DNA of 11,887 bases from Clostridia bacterium (GCA_017624735.1 JAGAMK010000057.1:1-11887), one strand, 5' to 3'; shown: positions 2,806 to 10,947, counted from the first letter of the stretch. Program-made: numbers and translations. Notes: generated from the letters alone by a model not told the origin.

Positions 2806-4047
2806 GTGAAAATAAAACAGGTTATCAAAGAAACAGGTCTTACTGACAGAGCAATAAGACTTTATATTGAAAATGACCTTGTAAAACCCGAATGTGACGA
2901 AAATTACAATGGCAGAAAAAGTATTGACTTTTCTGAAAATGATGTTTAACAACTAAAAAATATCGCTTTGCTCCGTAAAGCAGATTTTTCAATTCAAGAA
3001 ATCAAAGCCTTGCAAATGGGTGGCGAAACTGCACAACAAACAGTTAAAGAATACATAAACAGAACAAACGAAAAGATACGGTTCAATAGTGAAATAATTG
3101 AAAAAATCGGCACTCTTGCAAACGAAGAAAATATCACAGTTGAAATAATCTGTGAAAGACTTTCAACCAATTTAGCGGACGAAAAAGTACCAACAGAAGA
3201 CATGGAACTCTCACCCAAGGAACAGAAAGAGAAACACGTTTTTACAGCAATTTCTGTAATCGGCATGGTGTTGTCGTGTGGTTCAATGATACTGATACTA
3301 TTGCTGGTTGTGTTTGGATTTGGATATAAATATACCGAGTTCCTTCCTTATGATACAGATTTTGTACGTAAACTGATTTTTTATCCGATACAATACTTTT
3401 TTTTAATACAATTTGTGTTGTGTTTAATAATATATTTGTTCTGTAAAAAGAAGAAAAAAATAGGCAAGAAAAAAGATAGAAAAAAAGCTCTATGCATTTT
3501 TATTACAATTTTATGGGTAATATCATTGCTATTCTCACCATTCGCATTTCTGTTACATCTTATAGCTGGATATTGCTCAATAACATCTAATCCCAATAAC
3601 TATTTAGTGGTGGATGAAGAATATTTGAAATACGAGTGGGAAGAAATTTTTCAAGTTTTTCCATACAAGATGCCTGATTCAGTAAAGCAAATTGTGTATA
3701 GTAAAAACTCTACAACCAAGTATTTTTATGCTTACTCTGATGAGTTTTTAGACGCTTATAGAATGGATATATATGCAGAGTGGCAGCTTGACCATAATAC
3801 GGAATCAATATATGAAAGTGATTATGAAAAAGAAAAGCAAAGAATACTAAGTAAAGATAATATTGTCTGTATAGAGTCTATGGGAGATTGGCAGTGTGTT
3901 CATTTTAAAAATAAAAGAGATGTTACAGAGGCTATGTGCGATTATGAATATCTGTTTTTTGCCTATAATGATGAAACACATACCGTAAGATATATTGCTG
4001 AGTTTGGGTATAAAACAGACCCATATCACTTACAATTAGATTGGTAA
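2806..4047 (+). pseudogene. MerR-family HTH regulator fused to a 3-TM membrane region and an uncharacterised ~150-aa C-terminal domain. The frame is interrupted by one in-frame TAA at 2947-2949.
   Basis: From GTG 2806: VKIKQVIKETGLTDRAIRLYIENDLVKPECDENYNGRKSIDFSENDV*QLKNIALLRKADFSIQEIKAL. This is one continuous MerR HTH-wing-helix motif in the same frame (pos mod 3 = 1) as ORF-track 2968..4047. No SD precedes TTG 2968. Hydrophobic segments: VFTAISVIGMVLSCGSMILILLLVVFGFG, LIFYPIQYFFLIQFVLCLIIYLF, ALCIFITILWVISLLFSPFAFLLHLIAGY. Confidence 0.7.
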
Positions 4048-4049
4048 CT

Positions 4050-4078
4050 AAGCGTGGTCTTTGACCACGCTTTTCTTC
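4050..4078 (+). terminator. Rho-independent terminator after the MerR-TM gene
   Basis: 9-bp stem AGCGTGGTC (4051-4059) / GACCACGCT (4063-4071), loop TTT, then TTTCTTCG. Confidence 0.75.
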
Positions 4079-4122
4079 GTGTCAAAATATTATATAAAAT
4101 TGAATTTATCGGGGAGATTAAA

Positions 4123-4203
4123 TGTAGGGGCGGATGCCCACATCCGCCCGCAATAAGTTTATATATAAACCAAAACGGGACGATGTGGGCATCGTCCCCT
4201 ACA
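4123..4203. repeat. 81-bp composite palindromic (REP/MITE-like) element: two 28-nt inverted arms, each itself a 9-bp GC-rich hairpin, around a 25-nt AT-rich spacer
   Basis: Left arm TGTAGGGGCGGATGCCCACATCCGCCCG (4123-4150). The reverse complement of the right arm (4176-4203) is TGTAGGGGACGATGCCCACATCGTCCCG, a 24/28 match. The 4 differences are two compensated pairs within each local stem. Confidence 0.7.
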
Positions 4204-4322
4204 ATTTCTGCTGAATTTAATACTCAAACATCCCGACAAACTCCAATTTACCTAATCGTTTTCAACTTTCCGTTTTTCACTTTACATTTTTTAATTCCCA
4301 CTAAATTTATATGAATTAACTC

Positions 4323-4351
4323 TTGAATTCCTACTAATTTTGTAGTATATT
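4323..4351 (+). promoter_or_regulatory. Candidate sigma-A promoter for the Rrf2-metH unit, with overlapping repeat motifs
   Basis: -35 TTGAAT (4323-4328), 17-bp spacer, -10 TATATT (4346-4351). TACTA-N6-TAGTA (4332-4347) overlaps the spacer and -10. Confidence 0.45.
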
Positions 4352-4395
4352 ATTTCAGTAACAAAAAACAATACTCTAAAAAAGGTGTAGATACA

Positions 4396-4830
4396 ATGAA
4401 AATCTCAACAAAAGGCAGATATGCGCTTCGCCTTATGACCGATTTGGCAATTCATAAGGATGATGGATATATCTCAATAAAAACCGTGTCACAACGTCAG
4501 GGTATCAGCGAAAAATACCTTGAACAGATTATTAAAATGCTTGCAAAAGAAAACTTTGTTGAAAGCATTCGCGGTGCTCAGGGCGGATACCGACTCACTC
4601 GCGAACCTATCGAATATACAGTAGGCGAAATTCTTCGTGTAACAGAGGGTAGCCTTGCTCCTGTCGCTTGCCTTGCAACGGACGAAAATACTTGTGAGAA
4701 CTGTATGGACTGCGTAACCCTTGAAATTTGGCAATGTGTCCTTGATGCAGTCAATAAGGTTGTCGATTCAATTACTTTGCAATATCTCGTTGACAAACAG
4801 AAAGAAAAGGGGAATTGCGGATGTTGTTAA
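4396..4830 (+). CDS. Rrf2-family transcriptional regulator (IscR/CymR-like), Cys-rich and probably Fe-S binding
   Basis: MKISTKGRYALRLMTDLA...ISEKYLEQIIKMLAKENFVESIRGAQGGYRLTR is the canonical Rrf2 winged-helix domain. Cys cluster: ACLATDENTCENCMDC. C-terminal tail: GNCGCC. Confidence 0.9.
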   Translation: MKISTKGRYALRLMTDLAIHKDDGYISIKTVSQRQGISEKYLEQIIKMLAKENFVESIRGAQGGYRLTREPIEYTVGEILRVTEGSLAPVACLATDENTCENCMDCVTLEIWQCVLDAVNKVVDSITLQYLVDKQKEKGNCGCC

Positions 4831-7172
4831 ACAGATTCGGTAAAGAATTACTTTTCTTTGACGGCGGAATGGGTACAGAATTGCAGAAAAACGGACTCAA
4901 AAAAGGTGAGTTGCCTGAACTTTTAAATATCCATTCACCCGAAATAGTGAAAAAAGTCCATAAATCATATCTCGATGCAGGTTGCGACATTATTACAACT
5001 AACACATTCGGTGCAAATTCCCTCAAATTTAATAATGTAGAAGAAATCATCACAAATGCTGTAAGTATTGTTAAAGATGCCATTTGTGAAAGTGGCAGAA
5101 AAGCTTATACAGCCCTTGATGTTGGTCCAATAGGTAAACTTTTACAACCCTATGGAGATTTGCCATTTGAAGATGCATATAACCTTTTCAAAGAGCAGGT
5201 TGTAGCAGGTGAAAAAGCAGGTGCCGACCTTGTTCTTATCGAAACAATGGGTGATTTGTACGAGATTAAATCAGCAGTTTTGGCTGCAAAAGAGAATACA
5301 GAACTTCCCGTATTCGTTTCAATGATTTTTGACAGTAAGGGTACTCTTTTAACAGGAGCAGATGTTAAAACTGCAGTTGTAACATTGGAGGGACTCGGTG
5401 TTGACGGAATAGGTCTTAACTGCGGACTCGGTCCTGACCAGATGCTTGAACTTTTAAAAGAAATGACAAAATATTCAAGCACACCAATTTTTATTCAACC
5501 AAATGCAGGTCTTCCAGTTTCTATTAACGGCGAAACGTTTTACAATGTGACTCCCGAAGAATTTGCCGAAAAACAACTTAAAATATTAGAAAACGGTGCT
5601 TGTGCTTTGGGCGGTTGCTGTGGAACAAATCCAATGCACATAAAGGCTATGATTGACCTATGCAAGGGTAGAAAAATCAAGGAAATAACCAAGAAGAATT
5701 ATACAGCAGTTTCGTCTTATTCAAAGTCAGTTTTCTTTGAAAACAAGCCAATTATCGTGGGTGAAAGAATTAACCCAACGGGAAAAAAACTCCTTAAAGA
5801 TGCCCTTCGCAACAAGGATATGGAATACATCTTCCGCGAGGGTGTAAGTCAGACGGATTTGGGTGCTGATATTCTTGATGTCAATGTTGGACTTCCCGAA
5901 ATCGATGAATGTGAAATGATGACAAATGCCGTTACGGGACTTCAAAGTATTCTCAATGTGCCTTTACAAATTGACACATCAAATCCCGAAGTAATGGAAA
6001 AAGCACTCCGTTTTTATAATGGTAAGGCTATGGTAAACTCCGTAAACGGCAAAGAGGAGTCAATGAATTCCGTCTTCCCACTTGTGAAAAAATATGGTGG
6101 TGTTGTGGTCTGCTTAACCCTTGACGAAAACGGAATTCCCGAAACGGTTGAAGGCAGAATAGCCATAGCAGAGAAGATTATAAATAGAGCAAAAGAGTTT
6201 GGAATTGAGAAAAAAGACCTTGTTTTTGACCCACTTTGTATGACAATCAGCACGAATAAGGACAGTGCCAAAATCACTCTCAAATGCGTTGAAAAGCTTA
6301 CAAGGGAACTTGGGGTTAAAACAATTTTGGGTGTTTCAAATGTGTCATTCGGTCTTCCTAACCGAGAACTTATCAACTCAACATTTTTTGGTCTTGCTTT
6401 GCAAAAAGGACTTAGTGCAGGTATTATAAACCCCAAAAGCGAAATGATGATGAATACTTATTATTCATTCAATGCGTTAAATGGCCTTGACGAGAATTTT
6501 GAACATTATATTGCAAATGCAACCGATGTTAAAGCCGAAATCAAAACTGATGTTGTTGACCTCAAAACTGCGGTTATAAAAGGTCTTAAAGAAAGAGCAA
6601 AACAAGAAACCGAAAAAGAACTTCTTACGAAAACTCCACTCGAAATAATCGATAATATCATAATTCCTGCGCTTGATGTGGTTGGAGAAGGCTTTGAAAA
6701 TAACAAAATTTTCTTGCCGGGACTTTTAATGAGTGCCGAAACTGCAGGCGTAAGCTTTGAAGTTCTTAAAAAAGAGATGGAGAAAAACGGCTTACAAGGT
6801 GAAAAAAAGGGTAAGATAATTATGGCAACCGTTGAGGGTGACATTCACGATATCGGTAAAAACATTGTTAATGTGTTGCTTGAAAACTATGGTTATGATG
6901 TAATTGACCTTGGTAAAGATGTTAAGCCCGAAACAATAGTTGAAACAGCACTTCGTGAGAACGTGAAATTCGTCGGACTTTCTGCTCTTATGACAACAAC
7001 TGTGCCTTCAATGGAAAAAACAATCAAATTGCTCCGTGAAAAAGACAAGGATATTGCAGTTATGGTTGGTGGTGCAGTTCTGACAGAGGAATATGCAGGG
7101 ATGATAGGTGCAGACTTTTATGCAAAGGATGCAATGACAACTGTAAGAATTGCCGAAAAATTCTTCGCATAA
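4821..7172 (+). CDS. metH: Cobalamin-dependent methionine synthase, short form (Hcy S-methyltransferase + pterin-binding + B12 cap + B12-binding domains, no AdoMet reactivation domain)
   Basis: N-terminal Hcy-binding domain (LLFFDGGMGTEL ... GLNCG ... LGGCCGTNP zinc-Cys motifs). Pterin-binding barrel (IVGERINPTG ... LDVNVG ... VNSVNG ... GVSNVSFGLP). B12 motif EGDIHDIGKNIV ... GLSALMTTT. I prefer ATG 4821 (RBS AAAGGGGAA 4806-4814) over the ORF-track TTG 4815. It overlaps the Rrf2 stop by 10 nt. Confidence 0.9.
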   Translation: MLLNRFGKELLFFDGGMGTELQKNGLKKGELPELLNIHSPEIVKKVHKSYLDAGCDIITTNTFGANSLKFNNVEEIITNAVSIVKDAICESGRKAYTALDVGPIGKLLQPYGDLPFEDAYNLFKEQVVAGEKAGADLVLIETMGDLYEIKSAVLAAKENTELPVFVSMIFDSKGTLLTGADVKTAVVTLEGLGVDGIGLNCGLGPDQMLELLKEMTKYSSTPIFIQPNAGLPVSINGETFYNVTPEEFAEKQLKILENGACALGGCCGTNPMHIKAMIDLCKGRKIKEITKKNYTAVSSYSKSVFFENKPIIVGERINPTGKKLLKDALRNKDMEYIFREGVSQTDLGADILDVNVGLPEIDECEMMTNAVTGLQSILNVPLQIDTSNPEVMEKALRFYNGKAMVNSVNGKEESMNSVFPLVKKYGGVVVCLTLDENGIPETVEGRIAIAEKIINRAKEFGIEKKDLVFDPLCMTISTNKDSAKITLKCVEKLTRELGVKTILGVSNVSFGLPNRELINSTFFGLALQKGLSAGIINPKSEMMMNTYYSFNALNGLDENFEHYIANATDVKAEIKTDVVDLKTAVIKGLKERAKQETEKELLTKTPLEIIDNIIIPALDVVGEGFENNKIFLPGLLMSAETAGVSFEVLKKEMEKNGLQGEKKGKIIMATVEGDIHDIGKNIVNVLLENYGYDVIDLGKDVKPETIVETALRENVKFVGLSALMTTTVPSMEKTIKLLREKDKDIAVMVGGAVLTEEYAGMIGADFYAKDAMTTVRIAEKFFA

Positions 7173-7197
7173 TAGTGCTATTTGTACATTGTTATAA

Positions 7198-7227
7198 TTG
7201 ACAAAATATTACAGTATGTAGTATCAT
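7198..7227 (+). promoter_or_regulatory. Candidate internal sigma-A promoter upstream of nifS
   Basis: -35 TTGACA (7198-7203), 18-bp spacer, -10 TATCAT (7222-7227). No obvious terminator lies between metH and this site. Confidence 0.4.
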
Positions 7228-7297
7228 ATAAATGAATTCATAGTAATTTACTGTGAAATAAGAAAAACTATTGATTTTAATGAAATGAGATGTATAT

Positions 7298-8473
7298 ATG
7301 AAAGTTTACGCAGATAATGCTGCAACAACAAAAATATCAAAAATAGCACTTGATGCTATGATGCCATGTTTCCTTGAAACATACGGAAACCCTTCAAGCT
7401 TACATTCGGTCGGACAAGATGCTTTCCATGCTGTAAGGGATGCTCGTAATACGATTGCCAAATGTATCAACGCAGACCCTAATGATGTTTATTTCTCATC
7501 AGGTGGTAGCGAGAGCGATAACTGGGCAATTAAAGGTGCTGCCTACTTAATGGCTAAAAAAGGCAAGAAGCATATTATCAGTTCAAAGTTTGAACACCAC
7601 GCAGTTCTTCATACACTCAATGTTCTCGAAAAGGAAGGCTTTGAAATTACCTTGCTTGATGTTTATGAAAACGGTCTTGTGCGTGTTGAAGATGTAAAAA
7701 ATGCGATTAAAGAAGATACAGCACTTGTAACAATTATGTTTGCTAATAACGAAATCGGTACAGTTCAGCCAATCCGTGAAATCGGTGCGGTTTGCCGTGA
7801 AAAAGGTGTTCTTTTCCATACAGATGCTGTTCAGGCAGTAGGTCATGTTCCTGTTGACGTTGTGGCAGATAATATTGATATGATGTCTTTCTCAGGTCAC
7901 AAATTCCACGGACCAAAGGGTGTGGGCGGTCTTTACTGCAAAAAGGGTATAAGACTTCCAAACCTTATTGAGGGTGGTGCACAGGAAAGAAATCGTCGTG
8001 CAGGTACTGAAAATGTTCCTGCAATCGTAGGTATGGCAGCAGCACTAAAAGATGCTTGTGACCACATGGAAGAAAACACAAAGAAACTTGTCAAGATGAG
8101 AGAACAACTCATTGAGGGTATTCTCAAAATTGAGCGTAGCCGAATTAACGGTGACCGTGAGCACAGATTACCCGGTAATGTTAGTGCTTGTTTTGAGGGT
8201 GTTGAGGGCGAATCACTTCTCCTTTACCTTGATATTATGGGAATCAGTGCTTCATCAGGTTCAGCTTGTACATCAGGCTCACTTGACCCAAGCCACGTGC
8301 TTCTCTCAATCGGCTTGCCACATGAAATTGCACACGGTTCACTTCGTTTGAGCCTTTGTGAAGATAATACACCTGAAGAAATGGAATATATCATCGAACA
8401 GTTACCACCAATTATTAACAGACTTCGTGATATGTCACCACTCTGGGAAAAGATACAGAAAGAAGGTAAATAA
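7298..8473 (+). CDS. nifS: Cysteine desulfurase, NifS/IscS type (PLP-dependent)
   Basis: YADNAATT start, PLP-lysine motif [17 protein letters not shown], active-site loop [17 protein letters not shown], 391 aa. Confidence 0.92.
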
Positions 8474-8474
8474 A

Positions 8475-8891
8475 ATGGAATATTCAGAAAAAGTAATGGA
8501 ACATTTTGTAAATCCGCATAATGTTGGTAAATTAGAGGATGCTGACGGAATCGGTGAAGTTGGTAATGCAAAATGTGGAGATATTATGAAAATGTATCTC
8601 AAAATTGAGAATGATATTATCACAGACGTTAAATTCAATACTTATGGTTGTGCATCTGCAATCGCAACAAGCTCAATCGCAACTGATATGATTAAAGGTC
8701 AGCCTTTAAGTGAGGCTCTTAAACTCACAAATAAGGCTGTTGTTGAGGCTCTTGACGGACTTCCTGCAGTTAAAATTCACTGTTCAGTTCTTGCAGAACA
8801 AGCAATCAAAGCAGCTGTTAAGGACTACTACGACAAAAATGGTATTGAATATAACAAAGCTGACTTCGAATTCGAAGACCACCATCATTAA
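8475..8891 (+). CDS. nifU: Fe-S cluster assembly scaffold, NifU N-terminal domain / IscU type
   Basis: MEYSEKVMEHFVNPHNVGKL... with the three scaffold Cys motifs GNAKCGD, YGCASAIA, KIHCSVLA. I prefer ATG 8475, 1 nt after the nifS stop with RBS GAAGG at 8462-8466. The ORF-track start 8358 lies inside nifS. Confidence 0.9.
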   Translation: MEYSEKVMEHFVNPHNVGKLEDADGIGEVGNAKCGDIMKMYLKIENDIITDVKFNTYGCASAIATSSIATDMIKGQPLSEALKLTNKAVVEALDGLPAVKIHCSVLAEQAIKAAVKDYYDKNGIEYNKADFEFEDHHH

Positions 8892-8901
8892 TCTATAATC
8901 A

Positions 8902-8947
8902 GCCTCCCCTGTTAAAGGGAGGGGGACCGTCGAAGACGGTGGAGGGA
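8902..8947 (+). repeat. Bipartite tandem-hairpin intergenic element, copy 2, lying between nifU and nadA. Its 3' G-rich end supplies the nadA RBS.
   Basis: CCTCCCCT (8903-8910) pairs with AGGGAGG (8916-8922), leaving one bulged C. Perfect hairpin ACCGTC (8926-8931) / GACGGT (8935-8940). GGAGGG (8941-8946) sits 9 nt before ATG 8956. No T-run follows. Confidence 0.5.
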
Positions 8948-8955
8948 TTCCTAAA

Positions 8956-9870
8956 ATGACAGTAAAAGAAATGCAGGAAAGAATCTTGCAACTTAAAAAA
9001 GAAAAAGATATCTGTATTCTCGCTCACAGTTATGTTGCTCGTGAGATTATTGAGGTTGCCGACTATACAGGTGACAGTTTTCAGTTAAGTGTACTTGCAG
9101 AAAAAACTAATGCAAAAACTGTAATTATGTGTGGAGTTCGTTTTATGGCAGAAACCGTAAAAATTCTCTCACCTGAAAAAACAGTTTATATTACAAGTCC
9201 TGTTGCAGGTTGCCCAATGGCAGAGCAGATGAGTGTGGAGTATATCGAAGAAATCAAAAAAGAGTATCCCGATTATACTGTTGTGGCTTATATCAACACA
9301 ACTGCAGCACTCAAAACTGTTTGTGATGTGTGTGTAACATCTGCATCAGCAGTACAGATTGTGAAAAAACTCGAAAACGATAAAATTCTCTTTATCCCTG
9401 ACTGTAATCTCGGTGATTTCGTTGCAAAACAAGTGCCAGAAAAGACATTTAAGTTTGTAAACGGTGGTTGTCCAATTCACGGTCAGATAACAAAAGACGA
9501 TGTAAAAAAAGCAAGAGAATATTATCCCGATTCACTTTTGCTTGTTCATCCTGAATGTAAACCTGAGGTTGTGGCAGAGGCAGATTATGTCGGCTCAACA
9601 ACAGGTATTATGAAATTTGCAAAGGAAAGTGACCATAAGAATTTCATCATCGGTACAGAAATCAGTATTGCAGAATCTTTGCAGTATGAATGTCCCGATA
9701 AGAATTTCTTTGCACTTTCACCAAAACTCATTTGTCCTGATATGAAAGCAACAACTCTTGTTGACCTTTATAACACAATGCAGGGCAAGGGTGGAGAAGA
9801 AATAACATTAGACGAAGAAACAATTATAAAAGCCAAAAAATGCATTGATAAAATGCTTGAACTTGGGTGA
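8956..9870 (+). CDS. nadA: Quinolinate synthase NadA ([4Fe-4S] enzyme of de novo NAD synthesis)
   Basis: ILAHSYVAREIIEVADYTGDSFQLS, and three cluster-ligand Cys contexts: VAGCPMAEQM, NGGCPIHGQ, LICPDMK. Also LLVHPEC. 304 aa, typical of the short NadA type. Confidence 0.92.
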   Translation: MTVKEMQERILQLKKEKDICILAHSYVAREIIEVADYTGDSFQLSVLAEKTNAKTVIMCGVRFMAETVKILSPEKTVYITSPVAGCPMAEQMSVEYIEEIKKEYPDYTVVAYINTTAALKTVCDVCVTSASAVQIVKKLENDKILFIPDCNLGDFVAKQVPEKTFKFVNGGCPIHGQITKDDVKKAREYYPDSLLLVHPECKPEVVAEADYVGSTTGIMKFAKESDHKNFIIGTEISIAESLQYECPDKNFFALSPKLICPDMKATTLVDLYNTMQGKGGEEITLDEETIIKAKKCIDKMLELG

Positions 9871-9874
9871 CAAT

Positions 9875-10897
9875 ATGAACAAAGCAGTAATTGCTATGAG
9901 TGGCGGAGTGGATAGCTCCGTCGCTGCTTTACTTATGAAAAATGAAGGCTATGCCTGTGTCGGCGCTACAATGCAACTCTATTCCGAAGGGGATTGCAGT
10001 GATGCAAAAGCAGTTGCCGATAAGCTCGGTATGCCTTTTTATATTTTCCCACTCAAAGAAGAATTCAAAAAACAGGTTATTGATAAGTTTATAGAATTTT
10101 ATGAGAATGGCAAAACCCCAAACCCATGTGTTGAGTGTAATCGTACACTTAAATTCGGTGCTATGATGGACAAAATGCAGGAGTTGGATGCCGATTTTGT
10201 AGTTACAGGTCATTATGCTCGTGTAGTTTTTGAAAACGGTGAGTATAAACTCAAAAAAGCCGTTGATGAGAGCAAAGACCAGAGTTATTTTCTCTATATG
10301 CTCACCCAAGAACAATTAAAGCACATCAAATTCCCATTGGGGGAATACACGAAACCCGAAATTCGTGAAATCGCAGAAGAAAATGACCTTATTACTGCAC
10401 GAAAAAAAGATAGTCAGGATATCTGCTTTGTACCCGACGGTGACTACGTGAGCTTCATTAAAGGATATAACGGAAAAGAATATCCCAAAGGTCAATTTAT
10501 GCATAAAGATGGCTTCTCATTCGGTGAACATAAAGGTATTGTAAATTACACAATTGGTCAGCGTAAAGGTCTTGGAATTGCCTATAAAAATCCACTTTAT
10601 GTGCTTAACATTGACCCCGAAACTAACAATGTAATTTTAGGGGATAATGATGACCTTTTCACAGACGAGGTAAGTGCAAAAAATGTGAACATAATCAGCG
10701 GAAAATTACTAACAGAGCCCATCCGTGTGCTTGCAAGGGTGCGTTATCGTCATAAAGAGCAGCCTGCAACTGCATGGCAGACAGAAGACGGAATTTTACA
10801 CGTAAAATTTGACGAGCCACAACGAGCAATCACAAAAGGACAGTCATTAGTAATATTTGATGGTGACGAAGTATTAGGTGGCGGCGAGATTATATAA
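9875..10897 (+). CDS. mnmA: tRNA-specific 2-thiouridylase MnmA (tRNA U34 2-thiolation)
   Basis: PP-loop AMSGGVDSSVAA, catalytic Cys motifs NPCVECNRTLKF and DSQDICFV, GHYAR, DQSYFL. I prefer ATG 9875 (MNKAVIAMSGGVDSS) over the ORF-track start 9845, which lies inside nadA. Confidence 0.93.
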   Translation: MNKAVIAMSGGVDSSVAALLMKNEGYACVGATMQLYSEGDCSDAKAVADKLGMPFYIFPLKEEFKKQVIDKFIEFYENGKTPNPCVECNRTLKFGAMMDKMQELDADFVVTGHYARVVFENGEYKLKKAVDESKDQSYFLYMLTQEQLKHIKFPLGEYTKPEIREIAEENDLITARKKDSQDICFVPDGDYVSFIKGYNGKEYPKGQFMHKDGFSFGEHKGIVNYTIGQRKGLGIAYKNPLYVLNIDPETNNVILGDNDDLFTDEVSAKNVNIISGKLLTEPIRVLARVRYRHKEQPATAWQTEDGILHVKFDEPQRAITKGQSLVIFDGDEVLGGGEII

Positions 10898-10915: not shown

Positions 10916-10947
10916 AAGGGACGAATAACTCGTCCCTTTATTTTTTT
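10916..10947 (+). terminator. Rho-independent terminator ending the Rrf2...mnmA gene string
   Basis: 8-bp stem AAGGGACG (10916-10923) / CGTCCCTT (10931-10938), 7-nt loop, then TATTTTTTT. Confidence 0.8.

Follow-up and report, generated by a model that had tools for sequence, protein, structure and literature searches.

Methionine synthase and quinolinate synthase genes within an Fe-S assembly gene string of a gut Clostridia bacterium: conserved promoters and a predicted Rrf2 regulon

Introduction

How do genes for methionine synthesis, nicotinamide adenine dinucleotide (NAD) synthesis and tRNA thiolation come to stand among the genes for iron-sulfur (Fe-S) cluster assembly, and could one regulator control them all? 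The question is raised by a string of six genes, rrf2-metH-nifS-nifU-nadA-mnmA, in a stretch of 11,887 nucleotides (nt) of a Clostridia bacterium (GCA_017624735.1, JAGAMK010000057.1:1-11887), referred to below, at its full length, as the window. This contig, C49, belongs to a genome of 2.04 Mb (97.5% complete, 37% GC) from a gut Clostridia bacterium, a Candidatus Fimenecus-like member of the Acutalibacteraceae. An earlier, sequence-only reading had taken the string for a single transcription unit under one Rrf2 sensor. From comparison with related loci we favour, with reasonable though not high confidence, a housekeeping Fe-S operon with accreted client genes, two promoters and one IscR-like Rrf2 protein that would govern them as a local regulon.

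Results

The gene string and its genome

The open reading frame listing and the Pfam and NCBIfam matches place the six genes on one strand, followed by a terminator, and confirm the positions and common direction that the sequence-only reading had assigned to them (lengths in amino acids, aa):

4396-4830, plus strand: rrf2, IscR-like Rrf2 regulator, 144 aa (PF02082, 131 bits)
4821-7172, plus strand: metH, short cobalamin-dependent methionine synthase, 783 aa (four Pfam domains)
7298-8473, plus strand: nifS, cysteine desulfurase, 391 aa (TIGR03402, 553 bits, cut-off 531)
8475-8891, plus strand: nifU, IscU-type Fe-S scaffold, 138 aa (TIGR03419, 205 bits, cut-off 188)
8956-9870, plus strand: nadA, quinolinate synthase, 304 aa (NF006878, 363 bits, cut-off 294)
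9875-10897, plus strand: mnmA, tRNA 2-thiouridine(34) synthase, 340 aa (NF001138, 424 bits, cut-off 284)

Read at the junctions, the metH ATG at 4821 gives a 10-nt overlap with the rrf2 stop (ATGTTGTTAA), and metH is, judging from this overlap, translationally coupled to rrf2. The nifU ATG (8475) lies 1 nt past the nifS stop and the mnmA ATG (9875) 4 nt past the nadA stop; the sole real gaps in the string are those between metH and nifS (125 nt) and between nifU and nadA (64 nt).

In the genome of the window metH, nifU, nadA and mnmA are each single-copy. SufB was not found in this 97.5%-complete genome and no SUF system was detected in it; NifS-NifU is therefore its only recognisable Fe-S assembly system. 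The genome also encodes a NifZ-like class-V desulfurase, whose gene has a one-base overlap with thiI (C11:12058-14375, a NifZ-ThiI-type pair), and a third class-V enzyme that stands alone beside cdaA on C20. The nadB-nadC genes are on a separate contig, C29, followed by a Mur-ligase-like gene.

Distribution of the arrangement

Two surveys were made. The nifU-anchored survey comprised 80 species-representative loci, onto each of which the six window proteins were mapped. For the nadA-anchored survey 201 genomes were searched, which represent 185 genera of the family; NadA is present in 103 of these genomes, and the best 60 nadA loci were taken with 9 kb on either side. Among the nifU loci, metH and/or nadA occur in the string only in the ten closest (L006-L015); the next loci (L016-L032 and beyond) carry just rrf2-nifS-nifU, and nifS-nifU-mnmA is present in six distant loci. 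Only one genus-level clade of the Acutalibacteraceae has the exact six-gene order, the components of which have re-associated repeatedly. The proposal that metH and nadA were added to an rrf2-nifS-nifU core agrees with the core standing alone in most relatives. The survey of gene neighbourhoods suggested along with it finds the exact order in one small clade and not everywhere, with the sub-arrangements nadA-mnmA and nifSU-nadA-mnmA common in the family.

The ten closest loci differ in layout. L006 and L008 are identical to the window, L010 reads rrf2-nifS-nifU-nadA-mnmA with no metH, L013 and L015 have an insert of 3-4 kb between nifU and nadA, and in L012 the nadA and mnmA genes, still adjoining, are elsewhere in the genome. 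The NifS+NifU tree has two subclades, both with embedded metH, and L010 is nested among these loci, so that metH was relocated secondarily in L010, whose genome has it in a metF-act-metH operon. Among the 60 nadA loci, nadA adjoins mnmA in 34, in either order, and in 8-9 it directly follows nifS-nifU. The complete nifS-nifU-nadA-mnmA set recurs in several genera (L132, L150, L152, L158 and L169). In three other genera metF-act-metH stands beside nadA or mnmA (L138, L161) or not far from them (L159). A nadA-nadB-nadC operon of the classical type is seen only with more divergent NadA proteins (L165, L174, L176, L178, L179). In the literature searched we found no description of a linkage of nadA to nifSU or mnmA. 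Seen side by side, the sister species show stages of accretion, from the core to the core with nadA-mnmA, then with act-metH, and then with act lost.

Two promoters and one terminator

The promoter and terminator scans, together with folding, gave the following features:

4323-4351, plus strand: P1, promoter of rrf2-metH, TTGAAT-17-TATATT (promoter scan)
7198-7227, plus strand: P2, promoter of nifS-nifU-nadA-mnmA, TTGACA-18-TATCAT (promoter scan)
8903-8945, plus strand: two GC-rich hairpins in the nifU-nadA spacer (fold -22 kcal/mol, z = -1.1)
10916-10947, plus strand: intrinsic terminator at the end of the string (terminator scan and fold)

At P1 the block TTGAATTCCTACTnAtTTTGTAkTAT is invariant in 8/8 loci of the clade. 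With 11/12 consensus positions, P2 shares the top promoter score of the window. In all nine aligned regions upstream of nifS its -35 element (TTGACA) is invariant and its -10 element is TATGAT or TATCAT, while the rest of the spacer diverges, and the metH-less L010 keeps P2 in the interval from rrf2 to nifS. The sequence-only reading had called this internal promoter weak, a description that does not fit a near-consensus element conserved in 9/9 loci including L010. On this conservation we regard P2 as a genuine conserved promoter and no weak chance match. Since P2 is conserved even in the metH-less locus, the string would consist of two units, rrf2-metH and nifS-nifU-nadA-mnmA; the single transcription unit proposed earlier is at odds with this promoter and with the operator-like palindromes that P2 has of its own.

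The earlier view that one terminator closes the string is supported by the fold: the hairpin at 10916-10938 with its T-run has -16.2 kcal/mol and z = -5.5, and 0/200 shuffled sequences were as good. The metH-nifS and nifU-nadA spacers have no terminator likeness, each with z about -1.1 and without a U-tract. In the Rfam scans no family, riboswitches and T-boxes included, reached gathering score in the window or on the metF/metH modules of its relatives, and the sub-threshold Rfam matches in 4040-9000 are noise.

We considered the hairpins between nifU and nadA as a conserved regulatory element and rejected them, given a spacer that is not conserved in sister species and a fold no better than that of shuffled sequences. 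The spacer ranges from 20 to 250 nt across these species and holds unrelated hairpins or tandem repeats: three tandem repeats of ~70 nt in L006, a GTAGGGGTCGGCGTCCTC hairpin in L007 and L008, and two other hairpins in the window, where the 3' GGAGGG doubles as the nadA Shine-Dalgarno sequence. GC-rich REP-like hairpins of the GTAGGGG...CCC type occupy intergenic spacers, at window 4123-4203, L006:10418-10667, L007:438-497 and L008:10421-10586. As a separate observation, the nifS leader has an invariant GAAAAGAGATGT block right before the ATG (window 7280-7297 and the homologous positions in eight sister loci), and its conservation exceeds what a plain Shine-Dalgarno sequence needs.

Operator-like palindromes at both promoters

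With the pattern AATTCMTA-N9-TAKGAATT and up to 3 mismatches, three palindromes were found in the window:

4293-4317, plus strand: R1, AATTCCCACTAAATTTATATGAATT, upstream of the rrf2 -35 element; 1 mismatch to the pattern
4326-4350, plus strand: R2, AATTCCTACTAATTTTGTAGTATAT, overlapping the P1 -35 element, spacer and -10 element
7235-7259, plus strand: site B, AATTCATAGTAATTTACTGTGAAAT, just downstream of the P2 -10 element; 2 mismatches to the pattern

All three matches fall in the two promoter regions (0.6 expected). In the 80 nifU loci, 74 of 107 matches are at most 200 nt upstream of rrf2 or nifS (24 kb in total, 0.7 expected) and one or more palindromes occur in 46 of 73 loci, an enrichment whose P-value is inflated, the pattern having been derived from a subset of the same related loci. 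Despite this inflation the sequence signal is unmistakable.

Among eight rrf2-upstream regions R1 is restricted to the window, L006 and L008, and it is a hybrid, with AATTCCCA as its left half and TATGAATT as its right half. R2, in reverse orientation, matches the TATACTAC-N-GTAGGAATTC of the rrf2 promoters of distant relatives at 20/25 positions by our count. A further site, site A, lies in the P2 spacer and reads ATTCATACT-N5-AGTATGAT in L006, L009 and L010. Site B reads GAATTCATAGTAATTTACTATGAA in the alignment, with GAATTCA..A...A.T.TGAA invariant across 9 loci. The half-sites are of two subtypes a single base apart per half-site, AATTCCTA at P1 and AATTCATA at P2, which split cleanly between the promoters in all species of the clade. 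In distant relatives one rrf2 promoter has the two subtypes in tandem, whereas in the clade of the window they are spread over two promoters.

A search of the window's own genome with the palindrome gave no further promoter with the motif. Intergenic matches at C1:9902, C25:35120 and C32:1768 were rejected as operators, as they are tails of a repeated element with AATTACGAATT runs. This intergenic element (gtcattctgagcgaagcgaagaatctc ... cagggtgacttga ...), at C1:9800-9926, C25:35020-35144 and C32:1650-1800, ends in such runs, which mimic the pattern and give false operator matches. Outside the string, L137, of the same genus, has a stand-alone nadA-mnmA pair with a good palindrome 53 nt upstream of nadA. 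The idea that nadA always belongs to the Rrf2 regulon in this family was rejected: the operator is present in few loci (L122, L124, L137, L177), and the majority are heterogeneous or inside other operons. The two species with the 3-4 kb insert share a conserved TTGTAACAAAnTTATAATAATATTACAAAATTGTAAAG block upstream of nadA (L013:3560-3600 and L015:14585-14625), perhaps a promoter or operator of another kind that serves the detached nadA-mnmA pair. In the literature searched we found no description of an operator consensus for IscR-like regulators of Oscillospirales, and the pattern provides a candidate consensus for this group that is open to testing.

The Rrf2 regulator

The Rrf2 winged-helix fold of the first gene product is clear from PF02082 (131 bits), TIGR00738 (126 bits, cut-off 73) and the best solved relative, IscR of Thermincola potens (4CIC, E = 9e-34), followed by CymR. 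Cys94, Cys102 and Cys108 are conserved in 17/17 aligned homologues and align with the ligand positions of 4CIC, where the structure has serines that we take to be mutated cluster ligands. The cysteines are spaced C-X7-C-X5-C, with an additional Cys105 and a C-terminal CGCC tail (ending in GNCGCC, window 4801-4830). Cysteine-containing tails are common among homologues of the family (CG-CC, C-CNKG, CA-GC, ELEC), and this tail could be the source of a fourth cluster ligand. We rejected the identification of the regulator as CymR, on the basis of its NCBIfam score and of the presence of the ligand cysteines; in the alignment with Bacillus subtilis CymR (2Y75) no cysteine stands opposite Cys102, Cys105 or Cys108. 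The sequence features point to an autoregulated, IscR-like sensor over two adjacent units. The single Rrf2 sensor of the sequence-only reading is consistent with the related palindromes at both promoters.

NifS and its acceptors

NifS has the active-site loop SSGSAC324, and NifU has cysteines at positions 34, 59 and 103. NadA is a three-Cys [4Fe-4S] cluster enzyme, and MnmA is of the C-type, NPC85-V-E-C88 ... C184 (CxxC...C as against DxxC...C, a motif defined in part in PMC13066941). C-type MnmA is counted among the three-Cys cluster enzymes (PMC13066941), and the operon thus would couple the assembly machine to two clients with labile clusters. The C-type motif is present in 50/50 MnmA proteins of the family that were checked; it was rejected as the reason for the nadA linkage, as the unlinked MnmA proteins of the family are also all C-type.

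One NifS is here grouped with three acceptors, NifU, NadA and MnmA. The NadA cluster is reported to be built directly by NifS, in B. subtilis NifS-NadA and YrvO-MnmA form dedicated pairs, and the choice of acceptor by one cysteine desulfurase is actively debated (PMC13066941). The Fe-S rationale that had been offered for nadA finds a published precedent in this NifS-NadA pair, and NifS may directly serve both NadA and MnmA in the organism studied here. As a minimal natural system for desulfurase specificity, the locus combines one NifS and a scaffold with two enzymes that have labile three-Cys [4Fe-4S] clusters, in a gut anaerobe that lacks SUF.

MetH and its reactivation

The domains of MetH follow the order PF02574 (homocysteine-binding, 14-280), PF00809 (pterin-binding, 316-539), PF02607 (B12 cap, 582-652) and PF02310 (B12-binding, 666-775), and the protein covers only model positions 3-855 of 1182 in TIGR02082. 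The C-terminal reactivation domain that depends on S-adenosylmethionine (AdoMet, also SAM), PF02965, is absent from the protein and from the whole 97.5%-complete genome, in which tblastn with MetH found no other relative. A stand-alone PF02965 gene (191-212 aa) lies between rrf2 and metH in L009 (5746-6321), L011 (5670-6308) and L012 (5678-6316). The genomes of L006 and L008 have no PF02965 at the locus or elsewhere. These two genomes and that of the window encode a RamA-like protein with Fer2 and RACo (DUF4445) domains, which in the window's genome has 469 aa (C40:46472-47881) and matches PF00111, PF17651 and PF14574 (ferredoxin, RACo middle and RACo C-terminal ASKHA domains). PF02965 and the RamA-like activator are mutually exclusive in 11/11 sister genomes (5 vs 6).

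In the NifS+NifU tree L015, with RACo, is sister to L014, with the PF02965 gene, so that at least two switches of the reactivation system have occurred. The RACo protein of the window's genome has 54% identity to that of the L006 genome and 40% to that of the L015 genome, as against 89% and 76% for NifS, and this divergence, far above that of housekeeping proteins, suggests separate acquisitions. The match in the L006 genome (G001:C37:44991-45662) has one in-frame TAA and may be a broken or mis-assembled copy; its flanks are not syntenic with the RACo locus of the window's genome. RamA-like proteins have been inferred to reactivate MetH without PF02965 in Desulfovibrio and Phaeobacter (bioRxiv 10.1101/192971), and the exclusive pattern in our gene sets matches that inference. 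Exclusive reactivation systems in near-identical backgrounds offer a clean genetic test of the proposed MetH reactivation by RamA-like proteins.

Flanking genes

Neither the LytTR pair downstream nor the genes upstream of the string are related to it; those upstream encode an integrase, CinA, GtrA and a membrane protein, the last with a terminator of its own. The integrase is a Tn916-type tyrosine integrase at 1-1277, the very start of the contig, so that a mobile element may adjoin the DNA upstream of the string.

Discussion

We propose that client genes accreted onto an ancestral rrf2-nifS-nifU core. P1 would drive rrf2 and, by translational coupling, metH, and P2 would drive nifS-nifU-nadA-mnmA as far as the terminator at 10916-10947. 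As there is no terminator between the units, P1 transcripts probably read through into the second; metH, given its coupling to rrf2 and the lack of a separate RNA leader, would be expressed only via P1. The palindromes overlapping both promoters would be the operators of the three-Cys Rrf2 protein of the locus, which with a loaded cluster would repress, and release would follow from a shortage of Fe-S clusters or cysteine. On this view a small local regulon would bring together methionine synthase, Fe-S assembly, quinolinate synthase and tRNA thiolation. The linkage of metH may reflect sulfur amino-acid homeostasis, the supply of methionine and SAM, or hitch-hiking. A related cluster of Clostridium perfringens responds to cysteine (PMC2940859).

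The rival explanations differ in how many units they assume and in what holds the genes together. A single six-gene operon read from the rrf2 promoter alone, with 7198-7227 as an insignificant chance match, would suit the common direction, the rrf2/metH overlap, the gaps of 1-4 nt between nifS and nifU and between nadA and mnmA, and the one strong terminator that ends the string with none between metH and nifS. We consider it improbable, because a match to 11/12 consensus positions, with the -35 and -10 elements and the downstream palindrome invariant in nine species while the flanking spacer diverges, is hardly that of a chance element, and the same promoter is found between rrf2 and nifS in L010, where metH is missing. 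E. coli IscR uses two site classes, type-1 and type-2, and two units could likewise be regulated differently by the same Rrf2, its holo and apo forms reading the P1-type and P2-type sites, so that metH and nifSU-nadA-mnmA would respond differently to Fe-S status. The subtypes indeed segregate cleanly in all species of the clade, and the sites overlap or precede the -35 element at P1, whereas at P2 they lie in the spacer and past the -10 element. The tandem subtypes at one promoter in distant relatives suggest joint action, however, and the single-base difference per half-site and the hybrid halves of R1 also argue against two site classes; we regard such differential control as unlikely.

A neutral origin, in which rearrangement of small, fluid genomes brought metH, and perhaps nadA, together with nifSU without regulatory or functional meaning, and metH hitch-hikes on the rrf2 promoter, would account for the metF-act-metH operon elsewhere in the L010 genome, for the unlinked nadA-mnmA of L012 and the pair 3-4 kb from nifU in L013 and L015, and for a nifU-nadA spacer that serves as a landing pad for unrelated repeats. 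It does not readily explain the permuted re-association in independent genera (metF-act-metH-nadA in L138, mnmA-nadA-metF-act-metH in L161, nifS-nifU-nadA-mnmA in L132, L150, L152 and L169); by our rough estimate, chance would give metH-nadA adjacency in fewer than 0.1 of about 50 genera. The Rfam scans, moreover, detected no alternative control element for metH, and we give a purely neutral origin little chance of being right.

Several observations nevertheless weigh against the housekeeping operon with two promoters and one Rrf2 local regulon. The regulator scores below the equivalog cut-offs of both IscR (TIGR02010, 115.1 vs 207.55 bits) and CymR (NF047409, 127.2 vs 195 bits), site A is degenerate in L008 and in the window itself, and the half-site subtypes of P1 and P2 differ, so that different forms of the regulator, or different proteins, could read them and P1 and P2 could be under differential control. 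Most stand-alone nadA genes in other genera are without a palindrome, and the absence of metH from the L010 locus means that its linkage is not obligatory; the unit boundaries and the read-through, like the enrichment of palindromes, are read from the sequences of related loci.

A wider proposal, which goes beyond the operon with accreted clients and which we advance tentatively, as possible rather than probable, is that in this genus the Rrf2 protein, as a dedicated Fe-S sensor with a local range of action, captured metH, NadA and C-type MnmA. Fe-S or cysteine status, and not SAM- or methionine-sensing RNAs or NiaR, would then set methionine synthesis, NAD synthesis and tRNA thiolation, and one NifS would directly serve three acceptors that in B. 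subtilis are divided among paralogous desulfurases. In MetH reactivation, sister species would on at least two occasions have exchanged the AdoMet-dependent domain for RamA-like activators that depend on ATP and were acquired separately.

Comparison with known systems

The closest published system is the Rrf2-iscS-iscU-trmU cluster of C. perfringens (cpe1786-cpe1783), which is co-induced by cysteine limitation in an organism without suf (PMC2940859). In both organisms an Rrf2 gene comes first, followed in one direction by a NifS/IscS-type desulfurase, an IscU-type scaffold and MnmA, and no other Fe-S assembly system, SUF included, stands beside the cluster. The ancestral regulator/desulfurase/scaffold/mnmA unit assumed in the sequence-only reading therefore has a published counterpart. 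The window differs in that metH stands between regulator and desulfurase and nadA between scaffold and mnmA, so that the four genes are not contiguous, and in the conserved second promoter with its own predicted operators before nifS.

In B. subtilis, with its NifS-NadA, YrvO-MnmA (CymR upstream), SufS-SufU and NifZ-ThiI pairs (PMC13066941), a desulfurase is likewise genomically coupled to NadA and to MnmA, and the NifZ-like desulfurase-ThiI pair is also present in the window's genome, on C11. B. subtilis uses three paralogous desulfurases where the window has one NifS with NifU, NadA and MnmA. In the nadBCA-nifS locus of B. subtilis the nad genes are together, whereas here only nadA is beside nifS, with nadB-nadC on C29. 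The B. subtilis MnmA is D-type and that of the window C-type, and the regulator of the window has Fe-S ligand cysteines without counterpart in the CymR alignment.

The regulator shares with IscR of T. potens (4CIC) and E. coli the Rrf2 fold, three cysteines at the ligand positions, a gene that heads Fe-S assembly genes and palindromic sites at its own promoter. It differs in falling under the IscR cut-off and in its C-X7-C-X5-C spacing, extra Cys105 and CGCC tail, and its predicted operator consensus, AATTCMTA-N9-TAKGAATT, was derived here from sequence. The MetH without a reactivation domain, in a genome with a protein of Fer2, RACo_middle and RACo_C_ter domains, resembles the RamA-like reactivation inferred in the literature (bioRxiv 10.1101/192971), with the difference that here at least two switches took place among close species and that PF02965 was lost from the slot between rrf2 and metH. 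Nothing here overturns current understanding. The known iscR-iscS-iscU-mnmA cluster has in this locus a lineage-specific variant, put together from the recurrently associating modules nadA-mnmA and act-metH.

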